Part shown: in pieces, positions 15,255-19,362 of the stretch
Numbering within the stretch: the first letter of the stretch is position 1
How the letters are laid out: each line of letters begins with the position of its first letter
Sequence record: MN850584.1
From: Escherichia phage arall
Length of the DNA: 64,000 bases
Direction: 5' to 3' (one strand)
Made by a program: the position numbers and the translations under genes
The notes under the pieces: model-generated
What the model saw: only the letters and a program-made list of their open reading frames with translations
Told to the model about the DNA's origin: nothing
Databases searched by the model: none

Positions 15255-15917
15255 TTATTTAATATTCAATTTTGCACAAAGACGTTGTACCGCTTTGGCA
15301 TCGAACAAACTCCCACGAATAGTTCTCTTTCCTGATTCATTCAGATGTTTTGCAATCGTCATATATGGCGTTTTACAAGCTCTGTATGCAACTAAAGAAT
15401 CTTTTAAAGAAAGCGCAAACTCTTTTGAGCGTTTTGCTTCTTCCGTTTTCGTATAATCTGTTCTTTTGTATTTAGGGTTTGCTGCACCAAGAAGCGTTCC
15501 CTTCGCTTTTGCTACTTTAAGGCTCTTCTTAACACGATCAGATATTGCACGAGCCTCTTCTTCTGCCAGAACTGCTAAAATATTTATTATCATATTTTCA
15601 GCGGAGGGCATAGTTGCTATTCGTACATTAATCATCTCTAACAAGGTTGCAACAGAAGCTGTGTTACGTCCAAGACGGTCAACCTTAGCAACAACAAGTG
15701 TAGCACCTGTTTCTTTGCAAAGATTAACAGCTTTTACAAGCTCTCTACGTTGCTTCCAATCGCCTTTACCCGAATAAAACTCTGCAAAGCTACCTACAAT
15801 AGTATAATTTTCTTGTGAATCCAGGAAGCGTTGGATATCTGCTTCCTGTGATTCTATACCATACTGGTTGCCTTGTTGTTTCTTCTTAGAAAGTCGATGA
15901 TACAGTACAAACTTCAT
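15255..15917 (-). CDS. serine recombinase (resolvase/invertase family)
   Basis: 220 aa; N-terminal YHRLSKKKQ (catalytic Ser), LVVAKVDRLGRN, ISDRVKKSLKVAKAKG; C-terminal HTH-like region. Confidence 0.75.
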   Translation of the reverse strand: MKFVLYHRLSKKKQQGNQYGIESQEADIQRFLDSQENYTIVGSFAEFYSGKGDWKQRRELVKAVNLCKETGATLVVAKVDRLGRNTASVATLLEMINVRIATMPSAENMIINILAVLAEEEARAISDRVKKSLKVAKAKGTLLGAANPKYKRTDYTKTEEAKRSKEFALSLKDSLVAYRACKTPYMTIAKHLNESGKRTIRGSLFDAKAVQRLCAKLNIK

Positions 15918-17359: not shown

Positions 17360-17380
17360 AATAAACCCCCTTGAGGGGGT
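17360..17380 (-). terminator. rho-independent terminator
   Basis: hairpin CCCCCTTGAGGGGG with U-tract on - strand. Confidence 0.5.
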
Positions 17381-17390
17381 TTGTGTTAGA

Positions 17391-18044
17391 TTAATTATCA
17401 GAGGATACTTTATCAAGTTTTTCAGAGACTGTCAATACTTTTTCTTGTGATTCTTTCATTTCTGCTAAAATACTTTCAGCTTCATCACTATCAGGATCAC
17501 CAGTCAACAGCATACTAATTAGTTGCTCCTTGCTGAAGTTCAGAATATCTTCCGCTGTTAGTTCCAGTTGTTCTTCGATCTCTTCAATAAAAGTTTCACC
17601 ACCGGAAAAAGCATCTCGTAGTTTTGCAACTTCCATCGCTTCTTCTGGAGTTGCCCCTGCATCTAAAGCTGCTAAAGCAAAATCTGCCCCACTACCAACA
17701 GCATAATAATCTTCAGTTAAAGGATATGCTCGCGTTGGATTATTACCCTCGTGCATATAAATTTTACCGTCTGGGTGAACAACCAATGCCACAAACTCTT
17801 CATCTTCTTTATCAGGATCTGACTGGATCACCAAACCTGGGATTGTCTCTTGTGCTGCTTGGCATTGTAAGTTTTGTTCGAACCAAGAAAAGAAAGTCAG
17901 GATAGAAGACAGACGTCCTGCACCACCAACAAGGTAATCCCCAATTTTACGCACTTTCTTGAAATTTAAAGTGTCTACACGACTACCTACTGTTACTTTA
18001 CCATCAGATAGAATTTTGTTATGTGTTGCAATAATTGTTGTCAT
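17391..18044 (-). CDS. HslV-like (proteasome beta-type Ntn-hydrolase) peptidase with acidic C-terminal extension
   Basis: 217 aa; N-terminal MTTII (Thr nucleophile), KKVRKIGDYLVGGAG, GSGADFALAA parallel E. coli HslV MTTIV...KKVRR...GFAGG...GSGG. Confidence 0.6.
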   Translation of the reverse strand: MTTIIATHNKILSDGKVTVGSRVDTLNFKKVRKIGDYLVGGAGRLSSILTFFSWFEQNLQCQAAQETIPGLVIQSDPDKEDEEFVALVVHPDGKIYMHEGNNPTRAYPLTEDYYAVGSGADFALAALDAGATPEEAMEVAKLRDAFSGGETFIEEIEEQLELTAEDILNFSKEQLISMLLTGDPDSDEAESILAEMKESQEKVLTVSEKLDKVSSDN

Positions 18045-18535
18045 TGTACTTCCTCCTGTAGTGTTTTAAGGACTGCTTTACCACCGCTTACATATTTACG
18101 GAGGTAATCAATAGCTCTTAGTGTTTCTTTATCCACAAGAATTTTATTAGTTCTTGTCAATGGATGATTCAGTAAGTCACTGCAATTTCTTACTAACATA
18201 GATTTCTTGTGAAAGATACTGCTAAGAAAAAGAAGTTTAGAATCTTCTTCATCAATCAGGAGTAATTCTGAATTAGACCCAGCTACATTTATTATACACT
18301 CAAACAAGCCTTCTTGACTATCAGATAATTCCTGGTAATATTTAGTTAGCCAATCCTCTCCTTTTAACCAACTAAAAAACATCTGAACTTTTTGCAAAGT
18401 TGTCATGTTCTCTAAACGAAGAGATATTTCTTTTTCAATCTTGTCAATATAAATCTGTCTAAACTCATTCGGCTTAACTAAGCCAGCTTGATAGCATTCA
18501 TCAATACCATTGCGATCAATCTCAATTAGCGTCAT
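18041..18535 (-). CDS. hypothetical protein
   Basis: 164 aa ORF. Confidence 0.55.
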   Translation of the reverse strand: MTLIEIDRNGIDECYQAGLVKPNEFRQIYIDKIEKEISLRLENMTTLQKVQMFFSWLKGEDWLTKYYQELSDSQEGLFECIINVAGSNSELLLIDEEDSKLLFLSSIFHKKSMLVRNCSDLLNHPLTRTNKILVDKETLRAIDYLRKYVSGGKAVLKTLQEEVQ

Positions 18536-18571
18536 TTAACCTCCATAATAGGCATCCTTGCCTTGTAATTA

Positions 18572-19324
18572 TTAATATACTTCCGTGATGAACTGAGACA
18601 AACGGGAACGTTGGTTATCAGCAGTTGTCATTTCAACATAACCAATAAAATCTACAATAGCTTCCCTTTCTCCTTCTTCGTTAATAGGAACAACACGATC
18701 TAACAAATCACCTAACCCGTTAGCTCTTCGTTTAATTGCATATGTTTGATTAACATCGCCCATAATGACAATACGTGTATTAAGACCTGCTCGCTCAAGG
18801 AGAAGTTTTACTGTATTTGGTGACATAAGTTGAACTTCATCAATAAGAATAATACTGTTATCCCACGTAGCACCTAGTGCATAGTTTGGAATATTAAGTT
18901 CAATTTTGCCACTTGCAATATCGTTTTCCAATTTATTTGCAGTCATAAACTGTTGGAAAATTCTTTTAGTTGATTCGTAGTGTGCTGCTAGTTTATCAGT
19001 CTTATCTCCAGATAAGAAACCAATTTGATCATCACCTACTTCTGTCGGGTTTTTAAGGAAAATCAACTTTCTGAAATCACCAGCTTTAAGCATTTGCAAT
19101 GCTTTCCATAGTGCTGTTGTCGTTTTTCCTGTTCCTGCTGGGGCATTAACAATGGTTAAATCATTCCAAACCATGCTTCTTACAATAGCTTCTTGATTCC
19201 CAACAGGGGTAAATTCATCAAGACGGTAATCATCATTTCCTACTGCTTTAGCCGCATAACGACTGGCACGTTTGTCATCATTGGCTGCTGATTGACGACG
19301 AGCCTTTGCGGTTTTATTTCCCAT
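18572..19324 (-). CDS. phoH: PhoH-like ATPase
   Basis: 250 aa; Walker A NAPAGTGKTT; PhoH-like organisation. Confidence 0.85.
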   Translation of the reverse strand: MGNKTAKARRQSAANDDKRASRYAAKAVGNDDYRLDEFTPVGNQEAIVRSMVWNDLTIVNAPAGTGKTTTALWKALQMLKAGDFRKLIFLKNPTEVGDDQIGFLSGDKTDKLAAHYESTKRIFQQFMTANKLENDIASGKIELNIPNYALGATWDNSIILIDEVQLMSPNTVKLLLERAGLNTRIVIMGDVNQTYAIKRRANGLGDLLDRVVPINEEGEREAIVDFIGYVEMTTADNQRSRLSQFITEVY

Positions 19325-19337
19325 GTTTGCACTCCTT

Positions 19338-19358
19338 ATAAAAGGGGCTTTCGCCCCT
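19338..19358 (-). terminator. rho-independent terminator
   Basis: GGGGCTTTCGCCCC hairpin with U-tract on - strand. Confidence 0.55.
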
Positions 19359-19362
19359 TTGT

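Follow-up and report, generated by a model that had tools for sequence, protein, structure and literature searches.

The gene considered here encodes a protein resembling HslV, and the question it raises is whether a phage would deploy such a peptidase through the unfoldase of its host, HslU, or in a manner of its own. The window, that is, the whole stretch of DNA that was analysed, comprises 64,000 nucleotides of Escherichia phage arall (MN850584.1). The coding sequence occupies positions 17391..18044 on the minus strand and specifies 217 amino acids; a preliminary description of this DNA had located the ORF correctly and given no strand. Assignment as a peptidase gene is based on the ORF, on matches in Pfam, PHROG and PDB, on the predicted fold and on 99-100% identity to annotated genes of phi92-like phages. 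Translation of the ORF yields the N-terminus MTTIIATHNK, which contains the MTTII start described previously.

A strong Shine-Dalgarno sequence, AGGAGGAA, was read from the sequence at 18050..18057 (minus), 5 nt upstream of the peptidase ATG. This start codon overlaps the stop codon of an upstream ORF of 164 amino acids (ATGA) and the two genes are therefore expected to be translationally coupled. The upstream ORF (18041..18535, minus) is the orthologue of Phi92_gp059 and belongs to phrog_14834, a type to which no function is assigned and for which no match was found in Pfam, NCBIfam, PDB or PADLOC. Klebsiella phage FBKp34 carries a 39% identical neighbour at the same position and no counterpart was detectable beside the homologues of Vibrio and Aeromonas phages. 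The gp059-type ORF is a candidate for a subfamily-specific partner or regulator of the peptidase; as a universal partner it was rejected, being conserved only within the Stephanstirmvirinae.

Upstream of the gp059 ORF lies a gene for a PhoH-like ATPase (18572..19324, minus), probably the first gene of the transcription unit to which the peptidase belongs, and the gene order PhoH-X-peptidase was also present in FBKp34. A terminator-like hairpin, CCCCC-UCAA-GGGGG followed by a U-rich stretch, is located 13 nt past the peptidase stop codon (17366..17378, minus). With an RNA folding energy of -14.7 kcal/mol and a z-score of -1.84, its action as a terminator is only suggestive. This hairpin and a second GC-rich hairpin at 19341-19360, which carries a terminator annotation in phage Paula (LR865361), flank the PhoH-gp059-peptidase block, and both are terminator-like on both strands. 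The bracketing of the three genes by the two hairpins suggests a single three-gene transcription unit.

The surrounding genes form an early/middle block comprising ribonucleotide reductase (RNR), a thioredoxin-like protein, endolysin, PhoH, gp059, the peptidase, methyltransferases and a serine recombinase, in an order that is similar in FBKp34 and partly kept in Aeromonas and Vibrio phages. The serine recombinase or DNA invertase gene (220 aa; 15255-15917, minus) is situated a few genes downstream of the peptidase; the phage is lytic. No PADLOC match linking the locus to a defence system was obtained.

Escherichia phage inny matches the window at 99.9% identity, and the peptidase region is 98-99% identical in approximately 50 further phi92-like phages (Justusliebigvirus, Stephanstirmvirinae). 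The protein is 100% identical to the product of a phage AV123 gene and 98.6% identical to Phi92_gp058. Its counterparts in phi92-like records are annotated variously as 'peptidase HslV family', 'HslV family peptidase', 'putative 20S proteasome', 'putative proteasome component' and 'nucleophile aminohydrolase'. Four unannotated GenBank records, MG065639, MG065645, MG065656 and MG065689 ('Campylobacter phage A150/A145/C3/A110a'), are 98-99% identical to phi92-like phages here; the records are probably mislabelled as to host (Campylobacter jejuni) or else contain contamination. Homologues were present in 166 phage records, with identities of 77-79% in Klebsiella phages, 72% in phAPEC8-like phages and 33-41% in Vibrio and Aeromonas phages. 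The recorded hosts of the family are Escherichia, Klebsiella, Vibrio, Aeromonas, Shewanella and Pseudomonas, all genera of the Gammaproteobacteria and known carriers of hslVU.

When 1.84 billion cluster representatives were searched with a profile, 57 matches reached E<=1e-30 and 2,047 reached E<=1e-10. Among them are many proteins 137-155 aa long with the same compact architecture, that is, lacking the second helix (H2) of HslV, and named cellular HslV (177-182 aa) enters the list only from E ~1e-27. A separate group of proteins (P0137, P0150 and P0080; 177-182 aa; JGI name 'HslVU peptidase subunit') starts with MTTI and is distinguished by an insertion (DIYHF[VM]ITKVMPSL) in the region of H2. 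The structural database BFVD held 48 viral matches, from Caulobacter, Pseudomonas, Erwinia, Serratia, Vibrio and Gordonia phages. Scanning of 185,579 representative cellular genomes (GTDB) with a narrow pattern matched a single contig of 425 bp; within the reach of that pattern, close relatives of the tailed form therefore appear to be essentially confined to phages.

Similarity to HslV, proposed in the preliminary description from shared segments, was found to lie far beyond chance. The segments themselves are present: FKKVRK (aa 28-33) corresponds to KKVRR in E. coli HslV, and VGSGADFALAAL (aa 116-127) to IGSGGPYAQAAA. The protein matched Pfam PF00227 (Proteasome) with 25.0 bits (E=1.7e-5), above the gathering cutoff of 22.4, and its relatives scored between 24.8 and 33.5 bits. 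A match to phrog_1040, 'peptidase HslV family', extended over aa 1-212 (E=9.2e-62, 210 bits), HslV chains in PDB were recovered at E=9e-8 to 3e-5 and alignment to E. coli HslV using hhalign gave a probability of 96.8% (E=2e-10). The best PDB sequence match was HslV of Thermotoga, not enterobacterial HslV, and the gene is therefore not a recent capture from the host. An AF2 model built with 25 homologues had a pLDDT of 83 with a high-confidence core. The Ntn-hydrolase fold on which the preliminary description depended is present in this predicted structure, as an alpha-beta-beta-alpha arrangement superposable on proteasome beta subunits and on HslV.

The catalytic Ntn core comprises aa 1-155 (17580..18044, minus), modelled with pLDDT values mostly of 85-98. 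Thr2 (codon at 18039-18041), Asp14, Lys30, Gly40/Gly43 and Ser118-Gly119 of the peptidase correspond to T1, D17, K33, G45/G48 and S124-G125 of HslV. Conservation was assessed in alignments of 24 close and distant homologues (A1), of relatives from Vibrio, Aeromonas and Klebsiella phages together with E. coli HslV (A2), and of long-tailed relatives (A4). The equivalents of HslV Thr1, Thr2, Asp17, Lys33, Gly45, Gly48, Ser124 and Gly125 were invariant in all three, while surface positions drifted. Catalytic residues were kept even in relatives only 33-50% identical, which argues for purifying selection on catalysis. All aligned members begin MTT and therefore lack a propeptide. Methionine aminopeptidase prefers small penultimate residues, a specificity from which removal of the initiator Met would be expected to expose Thr1 as the nucleophile. 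Judged from these residues, the protein is most likely an active threonine peptidase. Intact catalytic residues do not prove activity, since the Betaproteobacteria proteasome homologue (BPH) and Anbu possess the same set and proved inactive in standard peptidase assays (PMC5777263, PMC6376114).

Whether the peptidase could work through HslU depends upon the surface by which HslV receives it. Against the NCBIfam equivalog models for HslV the protein scored 33.3 bits, where the cutoff is 137 (NF003964), and 31.1 bits, where it is 157.75 (TIGR03692), in both cases more than 100 bits short. In the model, a long helix (aa 45-67) is followed at the position of HslV H2 by a coil (aa 68-83) containing two prolines and one glycine. 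By residue mapping, in a region aligned with low confidence, this Pro/Gly acidic loop, IPGLVIQSDPDKEDEE (17796..17843, minus), replaces both H2 and the pore cluster R86/R89/K90 of HslV, and it is coil in both AF2 models. The second of these, an independent model of a 288-aa relative, also lacks H2, pLDDT in this region being 55-58 in one model.

The C-terminus of HslU is accommodated in HslV by F54, F57, A79, K80 and Q114 (PMC6429459). In the alignments F54 is replaced by L/K/N/V, A79, K80 and Q114 are not conserved and F57 is partly kept. The position of HslV K28, which we take to be the anchor of the HslU carboxylate, is occupied by T/Q/N/K/S in the phage proteins. The basic pore cluster R86/R89/K90 is required for activity and its mutation cripples HslV (PMC5777263). 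These three positions align with K/I/M/E/L, E (7/8) and E/D/G/N, respectively, in a low-confidence part of the alignment; whatever the alignment, the segment contains one Lys only and five or six acidic residues. Equivalog scores, loss of H2 and the groove and pore residues together indicate, on sequence and model, that the peptidase is not an HslV orthologue.

The preliminary description had proposed that the phage hijacks or poisons host HslU. HslV-like rings would dock onto the host unfoldase so that unfolding is redirected to substrates chosen by the phage, or HslU would be sequestered and host HslUV thereby poisoned. Among cellular proteins HslV is the nearest in both sequence and fold, the N-terminus MTTI is common to both proteins, all recorded hosts are Gammaproteobacteria with hslVU, and no dedicated phage unfoldase was found; docking is nevertheless unlikely, given the changes at the interface. 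H2, which makes up half of the apical surface facing HslU, is missing, the groove is not conserved, and a pore that is critical to activity when basic has become acidic. BPH exhibits the same pattern, in which the HslU interface was lost along with HslU dependence. The Thermotoga match also speaks against docking, with no recent host capture in evidence, and variable C-terminal appendages of 21-224 aa fit poorly with the docking of a symmetric cap, even if the C-termini are believed to point outward from the rings. Together with the failed equivalog cutoffs and a variable tail end, these features count against the proposal. As H2, the HslU-groove residues and the basic pore have all been lost, action independent of HslU is most likely, though on sequence grounds a non-canonical contact with HslU would be conceivable.

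No AAA+ or hslU-like gene was found in the neighbourhood of the peptidase. Elsewhere, phi92-like genomes encode two paralogous AAA (PF00004) proteins of approximately 380 aa that belong to phrog_2376 and are weakly p97/spastin-like. In phage Eryne (PQ529420) the two genes are CDS0071 and CDS0104, and the pair occupies 57370-58530 (minus; L007:7370-8530) and 73028-74155 (plus; L007:23028-24155). The phrog_2376 family occurs widely in large myoviruses (Herelleviridae included) and was present in 379 phage records, among them Bacillus, Enterococcus, Staphylococcus and Lactococcus phages without the peptidase. Because it is common in such phages of Firmicutes, there is no specific co-occurrence with the peptidase, and these proteins were rejected as a dedicated unfoldase partner for want of co-variation. 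Similarly, no co-occurring AAA+ interactors were found for PPH and RPC, the proteasome-like homologues reported by Fuchs, Alva & Lupas (Bioinformatics 2021; PMC8665760).

The acidic C-terminal extension noted in the preliminary description is present and comprises approximately 62 residues (aa 156-217; 17394..17579, minus). The statement that it adds about 60 acidic residues was in error, as it contains 17 D/E (27% acidic) and 5 K/R for a net charge of -12. The core carries a net charge of -11 and the whole peptidase -23. Mean column conservation fell from approximately 0.75 in the core to approximately 0.5 over aa 161-180 and to 0.14-0.38 beyond. The better conserved part coincides with a two-helix motif, ELTAEDILNFSKEQLISMLLT (aa 161-181; 17502..17564, minus), with the family pattern L-T-x-E-x5-S-K-E-Q/E-L-I and helices at 164-168 and 172-181 in the model. 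The segment ELTAEDILNFSKEQLISMLL, for which two short helices are predicted, is still recognisable in the proteins of Vibrio and Aeromonas phages. Distal to the motif, sequence, length (21-224 aa) and C-terminal residues vary while acidity stays at 18-30% D/E. The variation at the C-terminus means that the tail end cannot be a conserved docking peptide, and mimicry of the HslU C-terminal docking peptide EDLSRFIL was rejected since the final residues are neither conserved nor hydrophobic. A module shared with other phage proteins was likewise rejected: when the window and further loci, including stretches of the Eryne genome, were scanned by regex, the motif occurred in the peptidase gene only.

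No Pfam match was obtained within the tails of the peptidase and its relatives. In the 288-aa relative, a disordered acidic linker (pLDDT <50) comes after the motif and leads into a folded domain of approximately 90 aa with four strands and three helices (pLDDT 84-96); by reference to this architecture the phi92-type tail represents the motif and linker without the terminal domain. The domain is carried by longer members of 246-379 aa, namely P0073, P0077 and P0078, the protein of FBKp34 (L005:5001-5915) and those of Vibrio and Aeromonas phages (L002-L004), and its last helices have an HeH/SAP-like pattern (DL..x..G[IV]......K..L). Two further members, P0061 and P0069, have Cys-rich segments (CxxH...CxxC) in its place. 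For PPH and RPC, it has been suggested that C-terminal extensions point outward from the assumed rings and might serve as sites of interaction (PMC8665760).

The reading that we favour, and consider probable, is that of a phage proteasome homologue of the PPH/RPC type, a threonine peptidase acting without HslU. The protein would be a phage-specific, compact member derived from the HslV/BPH lineage, made without a propeptide and with Thr1 bared by removal of Met. With all of its catalytic residues (Thr1, Asp, Lys, oxyanion Gly and Ser) retained, it would be a likely active peptidase, presumably expressed with early/middle genes from the PhoH-gp059-peptidase unit. It would need neither HslU nor a dedicated unfoldase for its action, in line with what has been proposed for BPH and for uncapped 20S proteasomes, and its targets may be peptides, unfolded proteins or proteins that are specifically recruited. 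The acidic loop in place of H2 and the acidic extension are probably elements for the selection of substrates or the binding of partners. The extension consists of the two-helix motif and an acidic linker, which tethers the folded domain of approximately 90 aa in the longer relatives.

A catalytic role need not involve a chamber. Connectase is an archaeal proteasome homologue without H1 and H2 that functions as a monomeric protein ligase. By analogy, the phage protein might be a monomer or small oligomer, a sequence-specific processing enzyme or transpeptidase whose tail or C-terminal domain recognises the target. The two have in common a proteasome-like fold, the loss of apical helices and an extra C-terminal domain, and connectase sets a precedent for a family member that is specific and non-degradative. 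Unlike connectase, which is marked by loss of both H1 and H2 together with the Hins1/Hins2 insertion, the phage peptidase does not have this combination. We regard a non-chamber enzyme as doubtful, slightly more so than docking onto HslU.

Less probable again is a more elaborate form of autonomous action, in which the enzyme is a 'bait-and-degrade' protease for host takeover or counter-defence. The acidic pore loop and a tail that possibly mimics nucleic acid would bind basic proteins of the host, such as nucleoid-associated, DNA-binding or defence proteins, and deliver them to Thr1, with the tethered C-terminal domain acting as the capturing element in longer relatives.

The protein may alternatively be catalytically silent, an acidic decoy, DNA mimic or scaffold for which the Ntn fold is a structural chassis only. 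A recorded deletion bears upon this. In phage VEcB (MT932211 / NC_052663, 21403-22374), approximately 1.13 kb corresponding roughly to window positions 17855-18985 is missing, and PhoH aa 1-113 is fused in frame to peptidase aa 64-217. The junction (...DKLAA|QETIPG) exhibits an AA microhomology, and the deletion removes all of gp059 and the catalytic N-terminus of the peptidase. A second VEcB record (OZ035773) has the region intact, which is the case for a total of 53 of the 55 records of the genus. VEcB therefore represents either a natural triple knockout, with a peptidase gene that is non-essential in at least one propagated stock, or else an artefact of assembly; otherwise the gene is strongly retained in the genus. 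A dispensable gene in VEcB, the inactivity of BPH and Anbu in vitro and an overall net charge of -23, as with many phage early effectors, would all be in keeping with a silent protein. Strict invariance of Thr1, Asp, Lys, Gly and Ser at identities of 33-100%, while surface and tail drift, is hard to explain without selection for catalysis and renders such a role quite improbable.

A virion or prohead maturation protease, an enzyme that phages often encode, is scarcely credible and was rejected, as the structural module has its own head maturation protease (Eryne CDS0004) between the portal and major head genes and the peptidase gene lies approximately 100 kb away in the early/middle block on the opposite strand, among nucleotide-metabolism, PhoH and methyltransferase genes.

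The family is already annotated (phrog_1040), in the case of this gene in approximately 50 near-identical phage genomes, and its type was published in 2021 (PPH/RPC); the gene is known and its novelty low. What is of interest is the role of viral proteasome homologues. None has an assigned function, though the 48 BFVD matches and approximately 2,000 cluster representatives at E<=1e-10 show how common they are in phages. In the literature searched, no functional study of phage HslV/PPH proteins after 2021 was found and mentions were at the level of annotation. If active without an unfoldase, the peptidase would be useful as a simple system in which to study proteasome-like proteolysis independent of ATP, and would represent a new class of enzyme for host takeover by phages. 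Were the 'bait-and-degrade' proposal true, a viral proteasome homologue would for the first time have been assigned a function.

Among known systems, HslV (ClpQ), the peptidase of the ATP-dependent protease HslUV, shares the N-terminus MTTI. HslV assembles from two hexameric rings into a dodecamer and is activated through the C-terminus of HslU. Unlike HslV, the phage protein has a core shorter by approximately 20 residues, no H2, a C-terminal extension and no adjacent hslU. Closer in character is BPH, likewise an HslV-derived threonine peptidase without a propeptide or a known unfoldase, in which the HslU interface has also been lost and an acidic segment occupies the position of the pore loop (PMC5777263). 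The nearest description is that of PPH, from phages of the Caudovirales, and RPC, for which WP_042125023.1 and WP_140207863, respectively, are reference sequences, and which have neither H2 nor a propeptide and offered no functional clue (PMC8665760). The peptidase is of this PPH/RPC type, placed there by the published description of features as a single class in which PPH and RPC are not separated. Like them, it is the product of a tailed-phage gene, has a compact core of approximately 155 aa without H2, lacks a propeptide, retains Thr1, Asp17, Lys33 and the oxyanion Gly and has no co-occurring AAA+ partner; its C-terminal extension, or in longer relatives domain, is RPC-like and of unassigned fold. 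In contrast to PPH proper (approximately 140 aa, without a tail), it bears a 62-aa acidic tail with a two-helix motif, and in contrast to RPC, reported only from genomes of Proteobacteria, the tailed form occurs in lytic phages and in essentially no cellular genome.
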